Positions 49,242-62,298 of a DNA stretch of 64,000 nt are shown here, in pieces. Position 1 is the first letter of the stretch. Each line of letters begins with the position of its first letter. The position numbers and the translations under genes are program-made. This DNA comes from Candidatus Methylomirabilota bacterium (lineage in GTDB: Bacteria > Methylomirabilota > Methylomirabilia > Rokubacteriales > CSP1-6), in assembly GCA_035936835.1 (NCBI GenBank), contig DASYVT010000113.1:8072-72071 (forward strand), given 5' to 3'. The notes beneath the pieces are model-generated. The model saw only the letters and a list, made by a program, of their open reading frames with translations. It was not told the DNA's origin and made no database searches.

Positions 49242-50210
49242 ATGCTCGTCAGGCGCGATAGCGACAGAAGGCTCCGCGGAGAGGGCATCCCCTCCCGGGA
49301 GATCACAGACCACGGGGTGTACCTCAACCGCCGGGCCTTCATGACAGGCGCCGCGGCGCTGGCGCTCCTGCCCTGGGGCCGGGAGGCATTCGCCCAGGGC
49401 GCTCTCGAGCCGCTCCAGGCCTCGAAGAGCGCTGCCTATCAGGTGCAGGACGCGCTGACCCCGTACAAGAGCGTGACGACCTACAACAACTTCTACGAGT
49501 TCGGCACCGACAAGGGCGACCCTGCGGCCCATGGCGCGTCGCTCAAGACCCGCCCGTGGACCCTCAAGGTGGACGGGCTCTGCGCCAAGCCCAAGACCTT
49601 CGACATCGACGAGCTGCTCAAGTTCCCGCTCGAAGAGCGTGTCTACCGCCTGCGCTGCGTCGAGGCCTGGTCCATGATCATCCCGTGGATCGGCTTCCCG
49701 CTCTCCGCCCTGCTCAAGCGGGTCGAGCCCACGGGGCAGGCCAAGTACGTGGAGTTCACCACGCTCGTCAACCCGAAAATGTTCCCCGGCCAGAAGCGCG
49801 GGCTCTTCGGCTTCGTGATCGACTGGCCGTACACGGAAGGGCTGCGCCTCGACGAGGCGATGCACCCGCTGACGCTCATGACGGTCGGCCTGTACGGCCA
49901 GGTGCTGCCCAACCAGAACGGCGCGCCGATTCGCGTGGTCGTGCCATGGAAGTACGGCTTCAAGAGCGCCAAGTCGCTGGTGCACATCCGGTTCACGTCC
50001 GAGGAGCCCAAGACCTCCTGGAACAAGGCGTCGCCCGACGAGTACGGCTTCTACTCGAACGTCAACCCCCAGATCAGCCACCCGCGCTGGAGCCAGGCGA
50101 CCGAGCGGCGCATCGGCGAGCTGCGGCGCCGCGATACGCTCATGTTCAACGGCTACGCCGACCAGGTCGCGTCGCTCTACAGCGGGATGGACCTCAAGAA
50201 AGCCTTCTAG
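49242..50210 (+). CDS. msrP: Protein-methionine-sulfoxide reductase catalytic subunit MsrP (YedY)
   Basis: Tat signal ([13 protein letters not shown]) and a sulfite-oxidase-fold MoCo domain. Confidence 0.9.
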
Positions 50211-53768: not shown

Positions 53769-54137
53769 TCAGGTGTCGCCGCGGGGGCGGCGGCGGGGGC
53801 GGCGCGGGCCGGGGTCGAGCTCGACCACGAGGCCGTCGCCCCAGCCGTATTTCCTCTTCGAGCGCGCCTGGATGTCGCGGACCAGCGCGGGCGCCGTCTC
53901 GGCCCTGACCACACGCGCCCGCCCACGGAGCCGAGCCGTGCCGACCCGCCAACGCACGCGCGGCTCGATCAGGAGGTTCTGGACCCAGTGGGCGCGCGGG
54001 CCGTGCTCGGACACGAGGTAGTAGCTGCGCCCTCGGCGCGTGAACCAGATCTCGATCTGGCGCGCGTGCCCGGTCTTCCTGCCGCGCGTCGTGAGGTAGA
54101 GGAACTCCTGCTCGTCGCCCGCCGCCGGGTGCGCCAT
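53769..54137 (-). CDS. Deazaflavin (F420)-dependent nitroreductase family protein (DUF385, Ddn-like)
   Basis: YLTTRGRKTGHARQIEIWF and HWVQNL motifs of the PNPOx-like DUF385 family. Confidence 0.7.
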   Translation of the reverse strand: MAHPAAGDEQEFLYLTTRGRKTGHARQIEIWFTRRGRSYYLVSEHGPRAHWVQNLLIEPRVRWRVGTARLRGRARVVRAETAPALVRDIQARSKRKYGWGDGLVVELDPGPRRPRRRPRGDT

Positions 54138-54144
54138 CCTCGCG

Positions 54145-54999
54145 CTACGGGCGCGCGACGCGGGCCGGCTGCCCTGACCACTCCCAGCCGACCGTCGTGC
54201 GAGAGACGCCGAGGAGAAGGCCGCAGAGCGCGGACGGGTGGACCCAGAGCCCGTCGAGCTCGGTCGCGGGGTCCGGGCCGCGGGTCGTGAAGCGGCCGCC
54301 GCGCGCCGCGAGCCGCTCGATGATGGGCCGGACGTCGTCGGCCTCGACGTAGCACATGTAGAGCGAGTCGCCGCGCTTGGCGACCCAGCGCCCCATGGCC
54401 GACTTGGAGTTGGTCACCTGCGAGATCTCGATACGGTCGAGACGGTCCTTCGGGTTGAACATGGCCAGCGTGCCGACGTAGCCGAAGCGCTCGCTCGCGA
54501 TCGGCGAGACCCGCGACGGGTCGAGGTCGAAGATCCGCCTGTAGCGGTCGGCCGCCGCGCGCCAGTCGGAGATGAGCGTGTTGGTCACCTCGTAGAGATG
54601 GCTGACGAGCCCGACGGAGGGGCGCGCGGCGTCGGGCGTAAGCACCACGCGCATGCCGAGGGTTACCGACGGCTCGAGGTAGACCTGCGCGCCCTCCGAG
54701 GCGAAGCGGCAGCCGTGGCGCTCGAGGTTGGCCGTCAGCGCCGCCATGTCGCGCGTCGAGAAGCCTGCGGTCATCAGCCCCTCGCCCTGGGCGCTCAAGT
54801 GCTCGGCGGCCGGACCCGGGCCCGAGGGCTCGCAGAGCTCCACCTCGCTCGAGCCCAGGGCCAGGACGAGCCGCGCGGCGCCGAGATACGCGCTCGGCGC
54901 CGCGCGCACGGGTTGAGCGCCCAGCACCTCGCCGAAGGTCCGCGCGGCAGCCTGCCTGTCCTTGACGACGAGCTGCACCCGGTCGACCCGCTCGAGCAT
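54145..54999 (-). CDS. VOC family protein (two glyoxalase/extradiol-dioxygenase-like modules)
   Basis: Two repeated bab-bbb modules. 8 nt upstream of the DUF385 gene on the same strand. Confidence 0.6.
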   Translation of the reverse strand: MLERVDRVQLVVKDRQAAARTFGEVLGAQPVRAAPSAYLGAARLVLALGSSEVELCEPSGPGPAAEHLSAQGEGLMTAGFSTRDMAALTANLERHGCRFASEGAQVYLEPSVTLGMRVVLTPDAARPSVGLVSHLYEVTNTLISDWRAAADRYRRIFDLDPSRVSPIASERFGYVGTLAMFNPKDRLDRIEISQVTNSKSAMGRWVAKRGDSLYMCYVEADDVRPIIERLAARGGRFTTRGPDPATELDGLWVHPSALCGLLLGVSRTTVGWEWSGQPARVARP

Positions 55000-55106
55000 G
55001 CCGCCTCCCGGAGGGCGGGGCTCATTCGCCGCCGCCTCTGTGCGATAATCCTGACACAAAACGCCCGGATCCGGTCGGAGACCCGAGGGCTCCCGAGGAC
55101 AGAGAC

Positions 55107-55979
55107 ATGCCGAAGCTCAAGAAGCCGCAGGTTGTGGAGACGGCCGCACCCGAGCTGGCGCGGCCCGACTGGATCCTGGTGGCGCTGGCCCTCGTGGGGC
55201 TGGGCGTCGCGGGGTACCTAAGCGCGCTCAAGCTCGGCGGCACCCAGGCCTTCCTCTGCCGGGGCGGCAGCGGCTGCGATCTCGTCCAGGCGAGCCGCTA
55301 TTCGCTGCTGGCCGGCGTGCCGACCGCGATGTGGGGCGCCGGAATCTACCTGGCCATCGCCGTGCTCGCCGCGATGCCGCGGACCGCGCGCCGCTGGCAG
55401 GCGGCCTTCATGCTGGTTTCCGGCGCCGTCGCCTTTTCCCTCTACCTGACGTACATCTCGATCTTCGTCATCGGCGCGACCTGCCCGTACTGCCTAGGCT
55501 CGGGCGGGATCTCCGTGGCGCTCCTCGTGGCCATGCTGTGGCGGCGCCCACCGGCGCAGGGCCGGCAGGCCGCGGTCTACAAGCCCGGCAGGCTGGCGGC
55601 GCTCGGGATCACCGCGGGCATCTTCACCGTCGTCTTCGGCGCCTTCATCTTCGCCGCCGACTTCTCGGTGCCGGCCGGCTACCAGTCCGCGCTCGCCCAG
55701 CACCTGGCGAAGAGTCAGGGCATCTTCTACGGCGCCTTCTGGTGACCCGCGTGCACAGAGCAAAAGGCCCGGTTCGGGTCTGCCGCGCGAGAGCTTCCGT
55801 ACATCGAGTGCGATCCCAAGGGCGTCAACCCGCGCCAGGATCTCTGTGAGAAGGTGCCCGTGCGCTCCTATCCGACCTGGGTGATCGACGGGCAGAAATA
55901 CGAGGGCGTCATGTCCCTCGACAGGCTGGCCGAGCTGTCGAAGTTCCGCTACGCCACGCCGACTGCGGCAAAGCCGTGA
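55107..55979 (+). CDS. Vitamin K epoxide reductase (VKOR)-thioredoxin-like fusion with an in-frame TGA at 55743-55745 in the position of the Trx first active-site Cys (FYGAFW-U-PAC). Candidate selenoprotein, or alternatively a Cys-to-stop pseudogene.
   Basis: VKOR loop Cys pair (CRGGSGC) and TM CPYC. Downstream, in the same frame across the TGA: the FYGAxW(C)xxC motif, cis-Pro (SYPTWVIDG) 43 residues later, and a stop overlapping the next gene start (GTGA). A GC-rich hairpin lies 20-40 nt after the TGA. Confidence 0.6.
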
Positions 55980-57646
55980 CAGGGGCCGAGCTCTCCTCGC
56001 TGATGGCGGGCCCGAGCCCGCACGCGGTCCTCGACCTGCGCGAGCGGGCCGCGTACGCGGGCGGCCATATCTTCCGGGCCACCAATTTGCCGCGCTGCCT
56101 CCTCGAGTTCCGGCTGTTCCAGCTGGTGACGGCCAAGCGCACTCCGATAGTTCTCTGCGATGCGGACGGGCGGCTCGCGGCCCTGGCGTTGCCCGCGGTG
56201 CGCGCCATGGGCTTCACCGACGTGCGGGTGCTCGACGGCGGCCTCGAGGCGTGGCGCCGCGAGGGGCGCGGGACGATCACCGGCATCAACGTGCCGAGCA
56301 AGGCCTTCGGCGAGTGGGCGCTCCACACGCTGCGCACGCCGCAGATCCCGCCGCATGAGCTCCAGGCGTGGATCGACGGCGGCCGCGACATGGTCATCGT
56401 GGACTCGCGGACGCCCGAAGAATACGCGCGCGGCTGCATCCCCGGGGCCTGGAGCATGCCGGGGGGCGAGCTCATGCTGCGGATCGGCGAGCTGGCGAAG
56501 AGCCCCAAGACGACCATCGTTGTCCACTGCGGCGGCCGGACGCGGAGCTACATCGGCGCCGAGTCGCTTCGCCGTATGGGGCTGCCCAATCCCATCGTCG
56601 CGCTCGAGAACGGCACAATGGGCTGGGAGCTGGCCGGGCTGACCCTCGAGCGCGGCGCCGACCGCCGCGTGGCGGAGGTTTCCGAGGCGAGCCGGAAGCG
56701 CGCGGCGGCCGCGGCTTTGCTGATCGCGAAGGACGACGGCATCGCCTCGATCGCGCCGGCCGCGCTCGAAGCGCTCTGGGCCCGTCGCGCCGAGGAGAAC
56801 GTGGCGCTCCTCGACGTGCGCACGCGCGAGGAGTACGAGGAGGGTCACGTGGCGGGCGCCACCTGGGCGCCCGGCGGCCAGGCCGTCCAGGCGACCGATG
56901 AGTACATCGCCGTCCGCGCCGCGCGGGTGGTGCTGGTCTGCGACGGCGCGGGGCGGTCGACCATGACCGCCGCGTGGCTCAAGCGCATGGGGATGCCCGA
57001 GGTCTCCGTCCTGGCGGGCGGCCTGCCCGCGTGGAAGGCGGGCGGCGGCGCTGTCGAAACCGGCCACCCGGATCCCGAGCCCTGGGGTTATGTTGCAGCG
57101 CGAGCCGCCGTCGGCACGCTCGGCCCCGTCGAGCTCTTGGCCGCTCTCGGCGGCGCGCAGGCGCCACCCGCTCCCGCGAAGGCTCTCCCCGCTCCCGCGA
57201 AGGCTCTCCCCGCCCCCGCGAAGGCTCCCCCCGCCCCCGCGAAGGCTCCAATGGTCCTGAGCGTGGACCAGAGCGACGTGTATGCGCGCGGCCACGTGCC
57301 GGGCGCGGCGTGGCTCTGCCGGAGCCGCCTCGAATGGAAGGCGCCCCAGGCGCTGTCCGACCGCGCGCAGGCGCTCGTCCTCACGTGCCGCGACGGGCGC
57401 CACTCGACGCTTGCCGCCGCCGCGCTCGCGCGGCTCGGGTATGCGTCGGTCCGCGTGCTCGAGGGCGGCACCCAGGCCTGGGAGCGCAAGGGGCTGGCGC
57501 TCGAGACGGGCAAGACCCTGCTCCTCGACGAGACCGACGACGTCGTGCTCAAGCCCTACGAGAAGGGCCGCGAAGCCATGGAGGCGTATCTGAAATGGGA
57601 AGTCGATCTCGACCCCGCCGCCCTCGACGCCGCGCGGTCAAAGTAG
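55976..57646 (+). CDS. Multi-domain rhodanese sulfurtransferase (4 tandem rhodanese domains, 3 with catalytic Cys)
   Basis: Catalytic loops HCGGRTRS, VCDGAGRS and TCRDGRHS. PAPAKA-type repeat linker. Confidence 0.85.
   Translation: MTGAELSSLMAGPSPHAVLDLRERAAYAGGHIFRATNLPRCLLEFRLFQLVTAKRTPIVLCDADGRLAALALPAVRAMGFTDVRVLDGGLEAWRREGRGTITGINVPSKAFGEWALHTLRTPQIPPHELQAWIDGGRDMVIVDSRTPEEYARGCIPGAWSMPGGELMLRIGELAKSPKTTIVVHCGGRTRSYIGAESLRRMGLPNPIVALENGTMGWELAGLTLERGADRRVAEVSEASRKRAAAAALLIAKDDGIASIAPAALEALWARRAEENVALLDVRTREEYEEGHVAGATWAPGGQAVQATDEYIAVRAARVVLVCDGAGRSTMTAAWLKRMGMPEVSVLAGGLPAWKAGGGAVETGHPDPEPWGYVAARAAVGTLGPVELLAALGGAQAPPAPAKALPAPAKALPAPAKAPPAPAKAPMVLSVDQSDVYARGHVPGAAWLCRSRLEWKAPQALSDRAQALVLTCRDGRHSTLAAAALARLGYASVRVLEGGTQAWERKGLALETGKTLLLDETDDVVLKPYEKGREAMEAYLKWEVDLDPAALDAARSK
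57170..57250 (+). repeat. 21-nt tandem repeat x4 (GCyCCCGCGAAGGCTCyCCCC), encoding an (A)PAPAKA linker inside the rhodanese gene
   Basis: Direct repeats read from the sequence. Confidence 0.7.
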
Positions 57647-57705
57647 CCCGGAAGGCGAAGCGCCCCGCGCGCTCCGCGAAGCGCCGGCCGGCGCGCGCGA
57701 AGCCG

Positions 57706-58596
57706 GTGCGGCTCAAGGCGCCCGGCGCCCTCGTCAGCACCGAGTGGCTGGCCGCCCACCTGTTAGAGCCTCGCGGGGGCGCGGCTGAGCCTCGCGGGGG
57801 CGCGGCTGGCCCGCGCGTGCGCGTCCTGGACGGGACGTGGCACATGCCCCAGCTCCAGCGCGATCCCCGGCGCGAGTTCGAGGACGCGCACATCCCGGGC
57901 GCGGCCTTCTTCGACATCGACGGCATCGCCGACCGCGCGAGCCTGCTTCCCCACATGCTGCCGGGCGCGGCCCAGTTTGCCCGCCAGGTGGGCGCGCTCG
58001 GCATCTCGAACGCCGACCTGGTGGTGGTCTACGACGCGCGGGGAGTGGTCAGCGCCGCGCGAGTCTGGTGGACCTTCCGCGCCTTCGGCCATGACCGGGT
58101 TGCCGTGCTCGACGGGGGCCTGCGCAAGTGGCGGGCAGAAGGGCGGCCCGTCGAGTCGGGCCCCGCGACGCCTGCGCCGCGGCGATTTACCGCGCGGCGC
58201 AGGCTTGCGCTCGTGCGCGACCTCGGGCAGATGCGGCGCAACATGGAAAGCCGCCGCGAGCAGACGCTTGACGCCAGATCGCGCGGCCGCTTCGCCGGCA
58301 CCGAGCCCGAGCCGCGCGCGGGACTGCGCGGCGGCCACATTCCGGGCAGCCTGAACCTGCCGTACGACATGCTCTACCGCCCCGACGCCACGCTCCTGCC
58401 GCCCGACGGGCTCCGCCAGGCTTTCGCCGCAGCCGCCGTGGATCTGGGCAAGCCCGTCGCGACGACGTGCGGCTCGGGCATCACGGCCTCGGTGCTGGCG
58501 CTTGGACTGCATCTCATCGGCCACAAAAAGGTCGCGGTGTATGACGGCTCGTGGACAGAGTGGGCCGGCCGCTCCGACACCCCCGTCGAACCCTAG
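57706..58596 (+). CDS. sseA: 3-mercaptopyruvate / thiosulfate sulfurtransferase (two-domain rhodanese, SseA-like)
   Basis: Motif LVSTEWLAAHL...VRVLDGTWHMP and catalytic CGSGITAS. GTG start at 57706 is inferred. The track ORF (56974) is an over-extension overlapping the previous gene. Contains a 21-nt x2 repeat (EPRGGAA). Confidence 0.8.
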   Translation: MRLKAPGALVSTEWLAAHLLEPRGGAAEPRGGAAGPRVRVLDGTWHMPQLQRDPRREFEDAHIPGAAFFDIDGIADRASLLPHMLPGAAQFARQVGALGISNADLVVVYDARGVVSAARVWWTFRAFGHDRVAVLDGGLRKWRAEGRPVESGPATPAPRRFTARRRLALVRDLGQMRRNMESRREQTLDARSRGRFAGTEPEPRAGLRGGHIPGSLNLPYDMLYRPDATLLPPDGLRQAFAAAAVDLGKPVATTCGSGITASVLALGLHLIGHKKVAVYDGSWTEWAGRSDTPVEP

Positions 58597-58607
58597 GAGG
58601 CTTTGTT

Positions 58608-59168
58608 ATGACGGCGTATACGCTCAAGCAGTTCGTGGACCACCTCGACGCCATCACCGCCGCGGAAGGCGATCCGGCGGTGATCACGGCGAAGGCGGCG
58701 CCGCTCCTGAAGCGACTGTGTCTGAACCCCGACGCCCTCCCGGCCGAGTACCGCACGGCGCCCGCGGGGCAGCGCGGCCGCTACCTGCTCCACCGCGCCC
58801 CGCGCTTCAACGTCACGTCCGTGATCTGGCGCCCGGGCGACGAGGCGGGATCCCACGACCACGAGACCTGGGGGCTGGTCGGCGTCGTGGAGAACGAGAT
58901 ACAGGAGACGCGCTACACGTCAGCCGGCACACGCGACCTCGGCGGCAAGATCACCCTCAAGGTCAAGGAAGTCTTCCACCACAAGGCCGGCGCGGTCTCC
59001 ACGCTCGTTCCGCCCCACGACGAGATCCACGCCATGTACAACCCGACCAAGCGGGATACGGTCGAGATCCACGTCTACGGCAAAGACCTCGCGGGGCTCC
59101 AGCGCCACACCTTCGACAGGGACGGCACGGTCAAGTCCCTCGTCAGCTCCAAGTACATGAATTGCTGA
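58608..59168 (+). CDS. Cysteine dioxygenase type I family cupin (thiol dioxygenase)
   Basis: CDO-family motif (VIWRPGDEAGSHDHETWGLVGVVEN) and metal His ligands. GGAGG RBS. Confidence 0.75.
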   Translation: MTAYTLKQFVDHLDAITAAEGDPAVITAKAAPLLKRLCLNPDALPAEYRTAPAGQRGRYLLHRAPRFNVTSVIWRPGDEAGSHDHETWGLVGVVENEIQETRYTSAGTRDLGGKITLKVKEVFHHKAGAVSTLVPPHDEIHAMYNPTKRDTVEIHVYGKDLAGLQRHTFDRDGTVKSLVSSKYMNC

Positions 59169-59401
59169 CGGACTCTCCCCGAGCGCGGACGCCGGCGCCG
59201 AAGAGGCGCTCGGGCGAGCGATCGACGCCGATCCAGGCTTCGAGGCGGTGCACGCGGCCCCCGCGCGTGCTCCACCTGCGCGGCGCCATGCCCGAGGTCC
59301 GCGCCGCCGCGAGGATCGAGGAGCCGCGCCGGGCCGAGCAGGAGGCGCGACAGCCGGCGGGGCGCGTCGCCGCGGACCTGGCCGAGGCCATGGCGGTCTC
59401 C

Positions 59402-59923
59402 TTATGGAAGCCTGCAGCGGTCGAAGAGCTCCCGGTCGATTGGGATGTATCGGGAGCTTTCGCGGACAAGATGCCACGAACGCCGGGTTCGTGGAATGGC
59501 ATTTTCCACGACGCGGCCGGTCCGCCTGATCTCCTGCACGGCCGGCGCGAGATCCCCATCGCCGCTGACCAGGATGGCCGCGTCGTAGAGATCGCGGTAC
59601 GCCAGAGAAACCATGTCGGTGGCGATCTTGACGTCCAGGCCTTTTTCGTGCCACACGCCGTCAGCCTGGGCCATCCGTCCCGTCCACACTACGAGTTCCT
59701 GCTGCTGCCTGAGGCGCCGGAGGAACCGTTGCTGGTCTGCGTATACATCGGCGCCCATCTCCTGTGGAACAGCGGCGATGTAGAAGGCCGTCCTCACAAC
59801 GTGTCGTCCCGCAGCCAGCCCAGCGGCGAGCTGCAGGGGAGAGTATCGAGTCCAGCCAAAGACGGTCTTGAACGCCCGGTAGACGTTAGCTCCGTCGATA
59901 AACACCGCGACGCGAACCGGCAT
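59402..59923 (-). CDS. NYN domain (LabA-like, PIN-like) protein
   Basis: Motif VAVFIDGANV...ILVSGDGDLAP. 173 aa. Confidence 0.7.
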   Translation of the reverse strand: MPVRVAVFIDGANVYRAFKTVFGWTRYSPLQLAAGLAAGRHVVRTAFYIAAVPQEMGADVYADQQRFLRRLRQQQELVVWTGRMAQADGVWHEKGLDVKIATDMVSLAYRDLYDAAILVSGDGDLAPAVQEIRRTGRVVENAIPRTRRSWHLVRESSRYIPIDRELFDRCRLP

Positions 59924-60083
59924 GGGTCAGAGAAAGACCCGGCGTCCCGGGGGGGCGCCGGGATACTGACCCACCGTCGCGGATAACCGGGACATGTGGG
60001 GGGGTAATTCGCAGCTGCATTCACATCTAACCGCTACCACGCCCTCCCTGTCAAGCCAATGTCCTGAGCCGGATACACCCGCG

Positions 60084-60923
60084 TCAATAGACCTCGTCGC
60101 GCTCGCCGAACTCGAAGGCCTCGGTGCGATCCTCGAGCTCTTCGGGCGTGACGAGGCCCTTGTCCGCGAGCAGCCGCTCGAAGGAGGCGAGCCAGCGCTC
60201 GTAGTAGCGCGACTCCTCGCCGCGCGCCTCGGCCTGGGCGATCTGGGCGATCAACTGGCGCTGGAACTCCCCCCAGCCGTAGAGACGGTGATCGTGGAGC
60301 GCGACGGCCATGCCGAAGACGCGCCCTTCCCACGGCTCCTCGAAGACCAGCTCGCCGTTCTTGCGCGGCACGGCCGCGGGCCCGTCCATGTTGGCGAGAA
60401 GCCTGTCCGACGCGGCATTGTCATGGAGCGCCGCGGGCGGGAGGCCCGCGGGCGGCGGGACGCGGCAGGCCTTCGGCTGCGGCGCGCCCTGGCGGAGGTG
60501 TAAGTCGGCCACGGGTTGGCCGTCGGGCCGCTCTTCCCACGTGGATGCGGTGAACTGGTAGGCCGCAAGGGCCGGCGGCGGCGGCGACCACTCCTCCGCG
60601 CGGACCAATCCCTCGATCCAGTCGTAGAGCGCCACGACCTGCGCGTCCGTCGCGATCGAGTGGAACCAGGCCTGCCGCCCGTCGAAGAGCAGCATCGCCA
60701 CATTGGCCAGCGCGCAGGGGCCGAGGCAGCCGCCGATGGTGAGATGCACGCGGTTGCGCAGGCTGCGCCGCTCCCATTCGGTATGGTAGAGGTCGCGCGG
60801 CACGGGCGCGTAGCCGTCCTGGACGCGCCCGCAGCAGCAGGCGTCGGCGCAGACGAAGAGCTGCCCGAGCATGCGCGCCACGTGAATGCGTCGGCCGTCC
60901 GGACGCGAGACGATATTGCGCAC
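60084..60923 (-). CDS. Nitrile hydratase accessory/activator protein: a fusion of an N-terminal Cys-rich thioredoxin-like [2Fe-2S]-ferredoxin-like (DUF1636-like) domain with a C-terminal NHase beta-homologous chaperone domain
   Basis: N-terminal Cys pattern CADACCC...GGCLGPCALANV. C-terminal VFEEPWEGRVFGMAVAL...ERWLASFERLLADKG resembles the NHase beta N-terminus and accessory proteins. The GTG start 2 nt after the alpha stop is inferred. The track ORF extends to 61205. Confidence 0.6.
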   Translation of the reverse strand: MRNIVSRPDGRRIHVARMLGQLFVCADACCCGRVQDGYAPVPRDLYHTEWERRSLRNRVHLTIGGCLGPCALANVAMLLFDGRQAWFHSIATDAQVVALYDWIEGLVRAEEWSPPPPALAAYQFTASTWEERPDGQPVADLHLRQGAPQPKACRVPPPAGLPPAALHDNAASDRLLANMDGPAAVPRKNGELVFEEPWEGRVFGMAVALHDHRLYGWGEFQRQLIAQIAQAEARGEESRYYERWLASFERLLADKGLVTPEELEDRTEAFEFGERDEVY

Positions 60924-60925
60924 GG

Positions 60926-61573
60926 CTACCGGGCCGCCGCGGGAGCCTGGCAGAGCGCCACGCCGATCATGGCATCGCGGGTGACGAGCGCCGCCAGCTC
61001 GGCATCCGAGAGCCCCTCGGTGCCTTCGGGGCGCAGCGGCAGCACCATGTAGCGGATCTCGGCGCTCGAATCCCAGACGCGGATCTCGGTGTCGGGCGGC
61101 AGCTCGACGCCGAACTCGACCAGAATCTTGCGCGGCTCGAGGACGGCCCGCGAGCGATAGGCGGGCGACTTGTACCAGACGGGCGGGAGTCCGAGCACGA
61201 TCCACGGGTAGCAGGAGCAGAGCGTGCAGACGACCAAGTTGTGAACGGCGGGCATGTTGTGACCGGGGGGCATGTTGTGGACGACGGGCGTGTTCTCGTG
61301 GACGACCAACTTGTCCCCGCCGCCGCGCCCGGTGAAGCCCAGCTCCGCGATGGCCGCCGTGCCGTCGGTGAGGAGCCGTTGCTTGTACGCCGGATCGACC
61401 CAGGCGCGGGCGACGACCCTGGCGCCGTTCATCGGCCCGACGTCCTTCTCGTAGGTCTGCACGACCGTGTCCACCACCTCGGTGGACAGCAGGCCCTTCT
61501 CGATCAGGAGCGACTCGATCGCGCGCACGCGATGGACCACCCAGGGCTCGGGCTCGGTATGATGGCTGCCCAT
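60926..61573 (-). CDS. nthA: Nitrile hydratase alpha subunit (Co-type, CTLCSC)
   Basis: Metal-binding motif [22 protein letters not shown] (the Thr variant indicates the cobalt type). Conserved N-terminus. The ATG follows the beta stop after 1 nt. Confidence 0.9.
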
Positions 61574-61574
61574 C

Positions 61575-62258
61575 TCAGGCCTCCAGCGGCTGGAGATAAC
61601 TTTCCCAGAGATCGATGTACACGCGCTCCTTCGGCTCCGCGGCGTCTCCCCACAGCTCGCCCGACTCGAAACGCACGCTGTAGAGCGGCTCGGGGCAGCG
61701 GCCGCGCCCGTGCGCATGGGCGTCCGGCAGTATGTAGACGCCGTGGATCGTGTGGATGCGCCCACAGTGCCCGCGAGCATAGCCCGGCAAGCGCGTGTGG
61801 CCGGCCGGCTGCCAATTGCGCGTGACGACGGCATCGCCCGGCTTGAAGCGCGGCGTGGGATTGGGCTCGCTCTTCTCGGCCATGCCCTTGCGTACCACGT
61901 TCATCACCGTGGCGAGAAGCTCCGGGTCCTTGCGATCCGGCAGCGGGGCGTTCAGGTTCCGCTCGAAGTGCTTGGTCCGCGCGTCGAGCTCGTCGCGGCC
62001 GATGACGCCCTTCTCGATCAGCAGGGTTTCGACCGAGGCGAGCCAGTGCTCGTAGTAGCTCGTGTCGAGGTAGCGCGCCTGTCCCATGCGCTCGATGGCG
62101 TGACGGAACTCGTCGATATTGTAGATTCGCTTGACCATGCCGACCAGGTTCATCACGAGCACGGCCTTTTCCCAATCCGCGTGGAAGGCGGGCTCGTTCG
62201 GCTCGCGTTCGATGGGGCCGAAACCATGCTTGCCGCCGAGGTCGTGGACGCCGTTCAT
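61575..62258 (-). CDS. nthB: Nitrile hydratase beta subunit
   Basis: N-terminus [15 protein letters not shown]...[16 protein letters not shown]-terminus GVYILPD...[16 protein letters not shown]. Confidence 0.9.
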
Positions 62259-62298
62259 GATGGGTGTGCGCGGATGATCCCGCGGCGCGGCAGGGCTG

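Follow-up and report, generated by a model that had tools for sequence, protein, structure and literature searches.

A conserved gene unit of a four-domain rhodanese, a 3-mercaptopyruvate sulfurtransferase and a distinct subtype of thiol dioxygenase in Rokubacteria-type genomes

The stretch of DNA analysed here, referred to as the window, has a length of 64,000 nucleotides and comes from contig DASYVT010000113.1 (positions 8,072 to 72,071, forward strand) of a Candidatus Methylomirabilota bacterium. On its + strand, in a region of about 72% G+C, four genes stand in succession, encoding a VKOR-Trx fusion protein (55107-55979), a four-domain rhodanese of 556 amino acids (Rhod4, 55976-57646), a 3-mercaptopyruvate sulfurtransferase of 296 amino acids (3-MST, 57706-58596), and a thiol dioxygenase of 186 amino acids (TDO, 58608-59168). 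All four had been recognised in a sequence-only reading of the DNA, and all are present on the + strand in the place stated there. Rhod4, 3-MST, and TDO are supported by the comparison with related loci as a conserved unit in soil Rokubacteria-type genomes.

The genes are closely spaced. The TGA stop codon of VKOR-Trx and the GTG start codon of Rhod4 overlap as GTGA at 55976-55979. From the TAG stop codon of Rhod4 at 57644-57646 there is a gap of 59 nucleotides to the start codon of 3-MST, which by alignment is most likely the GTG at 57706. This start is backed by ATG-initiated 3-MST homologs in L001, L004, L026, and L002 (the L-numbers are labels of fetched homologous loci). A longer frame, beginning with an ATG about 50 nucleotides inside Rhod4 and chosen by the gene callers in L001, was rejected because the homologs begin 5-10 residues before the conserved motif LV(S/T)T(E/D)WL. 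The gap between 3-MST and TDO is 11 nucleotides, and a Shine-Dalgarno sequence AGGAGG, read from the sequence at 58595-58600 on the + strand, overlaps the stop codon of 3-MST and is spaced 7 nucleotides from the ATG at 58608, which follows it. Overlapping start and stop codons, previously taken as a sign of one operon, thus occur at the VKOR-Trx/Rhod4 junction, and the other junctions are without overlap. A sequence scan of the cluster yielded no convincing + strand terminator and no promoter-like site, where it has to be considered that the promoter types of this phylum may differ. The absence of + strand terminators between the genes would fit a single unit and is weak evidence for it. Rfam had zero matches in the window from 54000 to 60000.

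Rhod4 contains the Pfam rhodanese domain PF00581 four times (E 1.3e-66), in agreement with the domain count proposed before. Compared with the PDB entry 1YT8 (539 amino acids, "thiosulfate sulfurtransferase"), which we take to be PA2603 of Pseudomonas aeruginosa, it scores an E value of 3.3e-98. To our knowledge, four-domain rhodaneses of the PA2603 type have a solved structure and no known function. In a family search with 8000 candidates scored, 2399 database clusters matched Rhod4 at E <= 1e-10, and the matches are found mostly in metagenome bins of Rokubacteria/Methylomirabilota; an exact look-up of the window Rhod4 in the contig collection gave no record.

Four cysteines of Rhod4 are conserved in its close clade. 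Cys185 (nucleotides 56528-56530) in the loop CGGRTRS of domain 2 is invariant in 121/121 close homologs as well as in all 18 compared loci, Proteobacteria included. Cys322 in the loop CDGxxRS of domain 3 and Cys448 and Cys471 (the latter in the loop CxDGxxS) of domain 4 are kept in 120-121 of these 121 close homologs, among which Cys61 of domain 1 is not conserved. Three catalytic cysteine loops, located in domains 2-4, had been proposed for Rhod4, and this is correct for its clade. Family-wide, again including Proteobacteria, the cysteine of domain 2 alone is universal, with an aspartate there in domain 3 and a variable domain 4. The C-terminal tail DDVVLKPYEKGREAMEAYLKWE (DDVVLKPY...YLxWE) is conserved in the Rokubacterial Rhod4 clade, and only parts of it are common to proteobacterial members.

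3-MST has two PF00581 domains according to Pfam. Its loop CGSGITA follows the MST pattern CG(S/T)G(V/I)TA and not CRKGVTA, the loop of the TST type. Among solved structures, human MPST (3OLH, E 1.9e-85) matches the protein best. With this loop and this match the assignment as a two-domain 3-mercaptopyruvate sulfurtransferase holds, and the respective activity is predicted. The NCBIfam model PRK11493 gave 234.1 bits, a small shortfall from its equivalog cut-off of 250; the window protein carries a unique insertion of 14 amino acids formed by a repeat.

This insertion is one of two 21-nucleotide repeats in the sulfurtransferase genes. Both had been described as in-frame repeats encoding linkers rich in proline and alanine. 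TRF places both in frame, but the one in 3-MST does not lie in a proline/alanine interdomain linker. The repeat of Rhod4 (57154-57249, + strand, 4.6 copies, score 143) encodes PAPAKA(L/P) four times in the linker of rhodanese domains 3 and 4. Close homologs (85-93% identical) have 0, 1, or 2 of these heptads versus the four in the window, the lengths across the variants being 528, 535, 542, and 556 amino acids. Judged from these alignments, the heptad is a strain-variable in-frame repeat within a tolerant linker. The repeat of 3-MST (57766-57823, + strand, 2.9 copies, score 88) encodes EPRGGAA twice plus a partial copy in the N-terminal loop of domain 1. It is unique to the window and missing from L001, L082-L086, L004, L026, and L002. 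Neither repeat touches a catalytic motif.

The third protein, TDO, was identified by phmmer, an AlphaFold (AF2) model, and Foldseek as a cupin with a three-histidine iron site. Against the Pfam family CDO_I (PF05995) it reaches 19.9 bits, below the cut-off of 23, and most of its database homologs are likewise without a precomputed Pfam hit. Among PDB sequences, phmmer finds 3-mercaptopropionate dioxygenase (MDO) of P. aeruginosa (PaMDO) with an E value of 1.4e-19, whereas cysteine dioxygenase (CDO) of Bacillus subtilis (4QM8, 3EQE) is matched only at about 0.015. Mercaptosuccinate dioxygenase (MSDO, 8VNI) is matched at 1e-4 with the single sequence and at 4.7e-9 with a profile. The AF2 model, which was built on 30 homologs, has a pLDDT of 94 and a Foldseek TM score of 0.85 to PaMDO (4TLF). 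The best Foldseek matches are the MDO-type structures from P. aeruginosa, R. eutropha, and A. vinelandii, all with a TM score of about 0.85 and 26-30% identity, and the identity to rat and human CDO is 16-17%. The MDO match and the fold place the protein in the thiol dioxygenase superfamily. Its former label, a member of the CDO family, is too general, since the active site sets it apart as a separate subtype.

His83, His85, and His141 of TDO align with His89, His91, and His142 of PaMDO and form the three-histidine iron site of the cupin fold. The active-site signature of the window clade, consisting of Arg56, Arg58, His83, His85, Gly89, His141, Glu153, His155, Tyr157, and Arg166, is found in 113/119 database homologs and in 37/37 proteins derived from the loci; the C-terminal Cys186 is a further signature residue. 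The active site was compared with two other types of thiol dioxygenase which accompany Rhod4, an MDO type (Pseudomonas, Paucimonas, and Caulobacter) and an MSDO type (Polaromonas and Rhodoferax). In PaMDO numbering, the histidines at positions 89, 91, and 142 and the His and Tyr at positions 157 and 159 are common to all three types. Position 60 is Arg in the window clade, Tyr in the MDO type, and Gln in the MSDO type; position 62 is Arg, Gln, and Arg, respectively; position 95 is Gly, Gly, and Ala; and position 155 is Glu, Ser, and His. Position 168 is Arg in the window clade and the MDO type and is unaligned here in the MSDO type, where the residue is Arg175 in MSDO.

Arg56 of the window protein thus stands at Tyr60 and Arg58 at Gln62 of PaMDO, and the Gln62 of the Gln-type MDO is not present. 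Arg58 sits at the position of Arg60 of CDO, which binds the cysteine carboxylate. Arg166 aligns with Arg168 of PaMDO, the binder of the iron-coordinating substrate carboxylate, and is invariant in the family. In a profile alignment to MSDO, Arg58 corresponds to Arg66, Arg56 to Gln64, Glu153 to His161, and Arg166 to Arg175. In MSDO, Arg66, the equivalent of Arg60 in CDO, binds the distal carboxylate of the substrate and Arg175 the iron-bound proximal one, and from the sulfinate product succinate and sulfite arise spontaneously (bioRxiv 10.64898/2026.05.19.726356). The MSDO-type partners of Rhod4 match the set Gln64, Arg66, Ala99, His161, His163, and Tyr165 of this preprint. The Ser-His-Tyr motif, described as common to structurally characterised thiol dioxygenases (PMC8050391), is replaced in TDO by Glu153-His155-Tyr157, with Glu for Ser in 113/119 homologs.

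Compared with MDO, the window protein therefore has Arg-x-Arg for Tyr-x-Gln and Glu for Ser155, is about 15 amino acids shorter, and ends in a cysteine. With MSDO it shares the equivalents of Arg66 and Arg175 at an identity of about 24%, and it differs by Arg for Gln64, Glu for His161, Gly for Ala99, and the C-terminal cysteine. The active-site signature of TDO fits none of the three enzymes, canonical CDO, MDO, and MSDO. TDO represents a distinct subtype, in which the two-arginine arrangement known from a dioxygenase of dicarboxylate thiols is joined with a third arginine and the Glu-His-Tyr motif. We know of no characterised thiol dioxygenase that combines these features. The subtype comprises at least 853 clusters at 90% identity. 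For an intensively studied group of enzymes, as the thiol dioxygenases are, a large uncharacterised subtype emerges here.

Another finding was the conservation of the C-terminal Cys186 (nucleotides 59163-59165). It ends the motif K/R-Y-x-N-C in 113/120 homologs and 37/37 loci, and the Rhod4 partners of the MDO and MSDO types lack it. In more distant clusters at 50% identity, Glu155 and the C-terminal cysteine co-occur, and positions 60 and 62 vary. Residues 180-186 correspond, by the alignment offset, to the C-terminal lid loop of MSDO, which contacts both active-site arginines (bioRxiv 10.64898/2026.05.19.726356). One might speculate that this cysteine, having a thiol and a free alpha-carboxylate, resembles a tethered 3-mercaptopropionate, would be loaded as a persulfide by 3-MST or Rhod4, swing into the iron site, and be dioxygenated to yield sulfite or thiosulfate with regeneration of the cysteine. 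The strict conservation of the residue, its restriction to this subtype, its co-occurrence with the glutamate, its presumed location in the lid, and the constant association of the subtype with sulfurtransferases, including the copy in L087, would all speak for such a mechanism. Conservation and homology offsets are, however, its whole basis, the cysteine might equally well serve as a lid latch, a regulatory ligand, or a redox switch, and we know of no persulfide dioxygenase with the CDO fold, which makes the idea an unlikely one. If true, TDO would be the first enzyme of the CDO fold to act on protein-tethered sulfur, and the three genes would make up a self-contained unit for persulfide oxidation, which parallels ETHE1 plus rhodanese without being related to it. 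The occurrence of PA2603-type rhodaneses alongside thiol dioxygenases throughout the bacteria would then be explained as well.

Whether these genes belong together was judged from 81 loci anchored on Rhod4, 79 of them from one genome per species and two from metagenome contigs, with neighbouring genes located by tblastn. Loci with a Rhod4 at least about 55% identical to that of the window were taken as the close clade and those with 34-44% identity as the distant clade. In the close clade, 3-MST lies directly downstream of Rhod4 in 54/59 informative loci, and the complete order Rhod4-3MST-TDO is found in 36/57. In the distant clade, which belongs to the Proteobacteria and takes in Pseudomonas, Caulobacter, Paucimonas, Limnohabitans, Polaromonas, and Rhodoferax, the gene immediately upstream of Rhod4 is of the CDO family, and 3-MST is missing. 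This pair was seen in 9 loci in the first search and in 11/12 informative loci after a search with the divergent type. The sequence-only reading had called for a check of the gene neighbourhood in relatives, and it is the arrangement of Rhod4, 3-MST, and TDO that is kept there, not VKOR-Trx.

In two distant-clade genomes the partners are even joined in one protein. A Limnohabitans sp. (L067, 7164-9536) and a Comamonadaceae bacterium (L065, 7110-9545) have an MDO-type TDO and Rhod4 as one open reading frame of about 780-810 amino acids, the two parts being connected by a linker rich in Pro, Ala, and Thr. The presence of the fusion in two related, independently assembled genomes is strong evidence that TDO and Rhod4 act together. 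An apparent fusion of Rhod4 with 3-MST in L089 (3502-5964, 820 amino acids) was rejected, as it is out of frame through domain 4 and results from a frameshift or an assembly artefact.

The gene arrangement is conserved across dozens of species-level genomes, far beyond chance. A merely fortuitous adjacency of unrelated sulfur enzymes without a shared pathway might be suspected from the fact that each component is missing in some relatives. However, the same order in dozens of species-level genomes, the pairing of TDO with Rhod4 across phyla with three TDO subtypes, and the two fusion frames leave it with hardly any probability, and by this conservation and these fusions it is effectively refuted. 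Family identities, catalytic motifs, gene order, and the TDO-Rhod4 fusions of other bacteria are direct observations.

Further genes join the unit in some of the relatives. In a Rokubacterial subclade the cluster continues on the same strand with a gene for a 1-Cys peroxiredoxin, one for a DAO-family FAD oxidoreductase, or both, downstream of TDO in L013, L029, L037, L038, L049, and L050, and an extension of this kind is also found in L039, L045, L055, L030, L042, and L060. In L090 (2966-6540) a tripartite TctC-TctB-TctA carboxylate transporter is inserted between 3-MST and TDO, with tctA overlapping the start of TDO. The "orphan" TDO of L087 is preceded by a weak rhodanese-like open reading frame. 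Clustering of the neighbours gave no further partner in more than about a quarter of the loci, and several of the neighbour clusters are antisense open reading frame artefacts of high-GC DNA. As a side observation, a small glyoxalase-fold gene is convergent after TDO in L087, L088, L090, and L091, and a gene for an AMP-binding acyl-CoA synthetase also follows TDO in L087, L088, and L090.

The pairing of a thiol dioxygenase with a rhodanese is already published. In Pseudomonas, 3mdo-tst (PA2602-PA2603 in P. aeruginosa; c14110-c14100 in P. protegens CHA0; structures 3USS/4TLF and 1YT8) consists of a thiol dioxygenase gene beside a gene for a four-rhodanese protein of about 530 amino acids, and in P. 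protegens it appears to be one transcription unit (PMC12947264). The Pseudomonas-type Rhod4 (L070) aligns over its full length with that of the window at 38% identity and has in common the domain-2 loop C(A/G)GRTRS and parts of the tail, and the nearest solved structures of the window TDO are the MDOs of P. aeruginosa and A. vinelandii. In the window, in contrast, the order is reversed with TDO downstream, 3-MST is inserted between the two, and Rhod4 has the extra conserved cysteine loops in domains 3 and 4. A clustering of msdo with a rhodanese gene has been described for Advenella and Variovorax (PMC5373536). The clusters of Variovorax paradoxus B4 and Advenella mimigardefordensis, which consist of msdo, a cystathionine beta-lyase, and a rhodanese, share with the window a thiol dioxygenase plus a rhodanese. 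From the MSDO-type partners in the Polaromonas and Rhodoferax loci it is evident that this is the same Rhod4 family. The 3-MST partner, in contrast, occurs in the Rokubacterial version only. Full-text literature searches gave no report of a three-gene version with 3-MST or of a thiol dioxygenase subtype with Arg-x-Arg, Glu-His-Tyr, and a C-terminal cysteine, nor did they find one Rhod4 family partnering three TDO subtypes or natural TDO-Rhod4 fusions. The partnership of TDO and Rhod4 thus spans phyla and three TDO subtypes and is sealed by fusion proteins, and the 3-MST which joins the pair in Rokubacteria-type soil bacteria suggests that the missing link is the chemistry of 3-mercaptopyruvate or of persulfides.

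The conserved order, the pairs, and the fusions make a module for thiol oxidation and sulfane-sulfur transfer, as had been suggested from the sequence, a reasonable reading. We consider it somewhat better than an even chance, with a probability of roughly 0.55, that Rhod4, 3-MST, and TDO form a cytoplasmic module which oxidises thiol sulfur and handles sulfane sulfur, and which would represent the Rokubacteria-type form of the TDO/rhodanese operons. In a first step, TDO would add O2 to a small anionic thiol such as 3-mercaptopyruvate, or a mercapto-dicarboxylate such as mercaptosuccinate, giving a sulfinate and from this the carbon skeleton and sulfite. 3-MST would take the sulfur of 3-mercaptopyruvate onto its catalytic cysteine as a persulfide. 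Rhod4 would then relay this sulfane sulfur via its one universal and two clade-specific cysteine loops to sulfite or a sulfinate as acceptor, yielding thiosulfate or a thiosulfonate, and the cell would be spared the release of both sulfide and sulfite.

From motifs and neighbours we infer the substrate, thiosulfate as the end product, and the direction of the sulfur flow. 3-Mercaptopyruvate is the most economical candidate substrate. It is favoured because 3-MST is the constant neighbour and because 3-sulfinopyruvate decomposes to pyruvate and sulfite. It is further favoured because the DAO-family oxidase and the peroxiredoxin of the subclade fit a conversion of cysteine to 3-mercaptopyruvate and H2O2. 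By analogy to the mammalian D-cysteine/DAO/3-MST route, the position of the DAO-family oxidase suggests an H2O2-producing amino-acid oxidase that may feed the module. A mercapto-dicarboxylate is the alternative substrate because of the two-arginine site and the neighbouring TctCBA transporter. The module would bear on the turnover of cysteine-derived sulfur by abundant, uncultured soil bacteria.

The proposed chemistry has a logic known from persulfide dioxygenase (PDO) plus rhodanese systems, such as mitochondrial ETHE1/TST, the bacterial PDO-rhodanese fusions, and CstB of Staphylococcus aureus. In these an O2-dependent iron enzyme produces sulfite, and a sulfurtransferase adds sulfane sulfur to give thiosulfate, which by analogy may hold for the window as well; natural fusions of dioxygenase and rhodanese occur in both. 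The window system differs from PDO by the cupin/CDO fold in place of a metallo-beta-lactamase fold and by its presumed substrate, a thiol in place of glutathione persulfide.

Several points weigh against this thiosulfate-yielding module. In 18 loci of the close clade Rhod4 and 3-MST occur without TDO, and in L082-L086 3-MST and TDO occur without Rhod4; no component is strictly obligatory, each being dispensable in some genomes. 3-Sulfinopropionate, the product of MDO, is stable and sets no sulfite free on its own, and therefore a single role in sulfite trapping is not obviously valid for all three TDO types. The exchange of Ser for Glu and the invariant C-terminal cysteine are not accounted for by the model. 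A tst deletion in P. protegens left the levels of 3-mercaptopropionate without significant change and had no clear phenotype (PMC12947264).

The same enzymes in the same conserved order could also serve a purpose which is neither catabolic nor detoxifying, namely sulfur scavenging, in which sulfur for assimilation under sulfate limitation would come from organosulfur thiols or from thiosulfate, the former giving up sulfite by the action of TDO and the latter being cleaved by the rhodaneses to sulfite and sulfane sulfur. Rhodaneses catalyse their reaction both ways, a persulfide dioxygenase-rhodanese fusion has reportedly been proposed to act in sulfur assimilation, and a transporter adjoins TDO in L090. 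Against this, neither the cluster nor its recurrent neighbours showed a sulfate-starvation regulator, a sulfite reductase, or a cysteine synthase, and the genes which do recur, a DAO-family oxidase, a peroxiredoxin, and a CoA-transferase, look catabolic. We regard scavenging as a possible but rather doubtful function and prefer the module for thiol oxidation with thiosulfate as product.

The gene upstream of this module, the VKOR-Trx fusion (Pfam VKOR, PF07884, E 1.1e-24, + strand), is of interest in its own right. In its Trx domain an in-frame TGA at 55743-55745 gives a redox motif W-U-P-A-C in place of CxxC. The domain scores below the Pfam cut-off (18.1 vs 24.8), and the first cysteine of its redox motif is this TGA codon. 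All 120 clusters of VKOR-Trx homologs among the matches listed end at ...YGAFW, and the homologs listed are 80-93% identical to the window protein save one chimeric entry with 71%. The stretch of 77 codons which follows the TGA is under purifying selection. Relative to L084 it has synonymous differences at 14 codons and nonsynonymous ones at 5, and thus differs mainly at synonymous sites. Twenty nucleotides past the TGA there is a hairpin GGCCCGGUUCGGGUC / GGCCCGGTTCGGGTC (55766-55780), which is invariant in six loci while the flanking synonymous sites vary; folding statistics gave no signal for it, with z = 0.45 versus shuffles in this GC-rich sequence. These features, a conserved in-frame TGA followed by purifying selection and a hairpin, are those by which a selenocysteine codon is usually recognised, and VKOR-Trx is a probable selenoprotein, the insertion of selenocysteine at the TGA being suggested by this conservation. 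Within the window there is no tRNA-Sec and no obvious sel gene, no NCBIfam selenoprotein model matches VKOR-Trx, and a literature search found no paper on VKOR selenoproteins in bacteria.

Outside the Trx domain, the cysteines of VKOR-Trx are arranged as a loop pair, Cys51 and Cys57, and a membrane motif Cys126-Pro-Tyr-Cys129. With the positive-inside rule and the homology to bacterial VKOR-Trx fusions, five helices are predicted, with the Cys51/Cys57 loop, Cys126-x-x-Cys129, and the Trx domain on the outer (periplasmic) face. The cyanobacterial and actinobacterial fusions, which are analogues of DsbB/DsbA, share PF07884, the cysteine pair, the CxxC motif, the fifth transmembrane helix, and the C-terminal Trx-like domain, a putative one here, with the window protein, which differs from them by the TGA-encoded first cysteine of the Trx CxxC (U-P-A-C). 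Rhod4, 3-MST, and TDO are without signal peptides.

The sequence-only reading had made VKOR-Trx a functional part of the cluster; extended, this would mean a quinone-linked exchange of disulfides or selenenylsulfides coupled to the rhodaneses, perhaps for selenium trafficking. The GTGA overlap with Rhod4, which is also kept in L001, the direct succession of VKOR-Trx and 3MST-TDO without Rhod4 in five loci (L082-L086), the strong candidacy of VKOR-Trx as a selenoprotein, and the action of rhodanese domains in selenium metabolism elsewhere would agree with this. However, a VKOR within 8 kb of Rhod4 was found in 0/79 species-representative loci, and the adjacency is confined to near relatives with a VKOR at least 80% identical, in which all flanking genes, unrelated ones included, are syntenic too. 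The predicted periplasmic location of the Trx domain would separate it from the cytoplasmic sulfur enzymes, the window lacks the selenium genes named above, and the pairing of Rhod4 and TDO is widespread without a nearby VKOR, which counts against a handling of selenium. An integral role of VKOR-Trx is therefore very improbable, and the gene, which is not a conserved member of the module, looks like a lineage-specific neighbour, probably co-transcribed in this lineage. It would act separately, as a periplasmic disulfide-forming selenoprotein encoded on a shared transcript in this lineage only.

Some further genes surround the cluster. Just upstream of VKOR-Trx and divergent to it, a two-domain glyoxalase/VOC-fold protein of 304 amino acids is encoded on the - strand (54145-55059), homologs of which recur near Rhod4 in 14 loci. 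It is adjoined by a gene of the deazaflavin (F420)-dependent nitroreductase family (53769-54137, - strand). On the + strand, a reading frame of 322 amino acids with a twin-arginine-like N-terminus (49242-50210) is an Oxidored_molyb gene by synteny with L001 and L082, where a Ferric_reduct gene follows. Judged by these families, the pair is probably MsrP/MsrQ-like and would then place a further extracytoplasmic redox system a few kb ahead of VKOR-Trx. On the other side of the sulfur genes, the - strand carries an operon at 60084-62261 for a nitrile hydratase of the cobalt type (VCTLCSC), consisting of the beta and alpha subunits and a 275 amino acid protein with an accessory domain. An identity as thiocyanate hydrolase, which would have tied the operon to the chemistry of the rhodaneses, was rejected, the NCBIfam model reaching 201 bits against a cut-off of 291, and the alpha subunit matches the NCBIfam nitrile hydratase model with 294 bits at a cut-off of 250. 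Between this operon and the sulfur cluster lies a gene for an NYN-domain protein (59402-59923, - strand).

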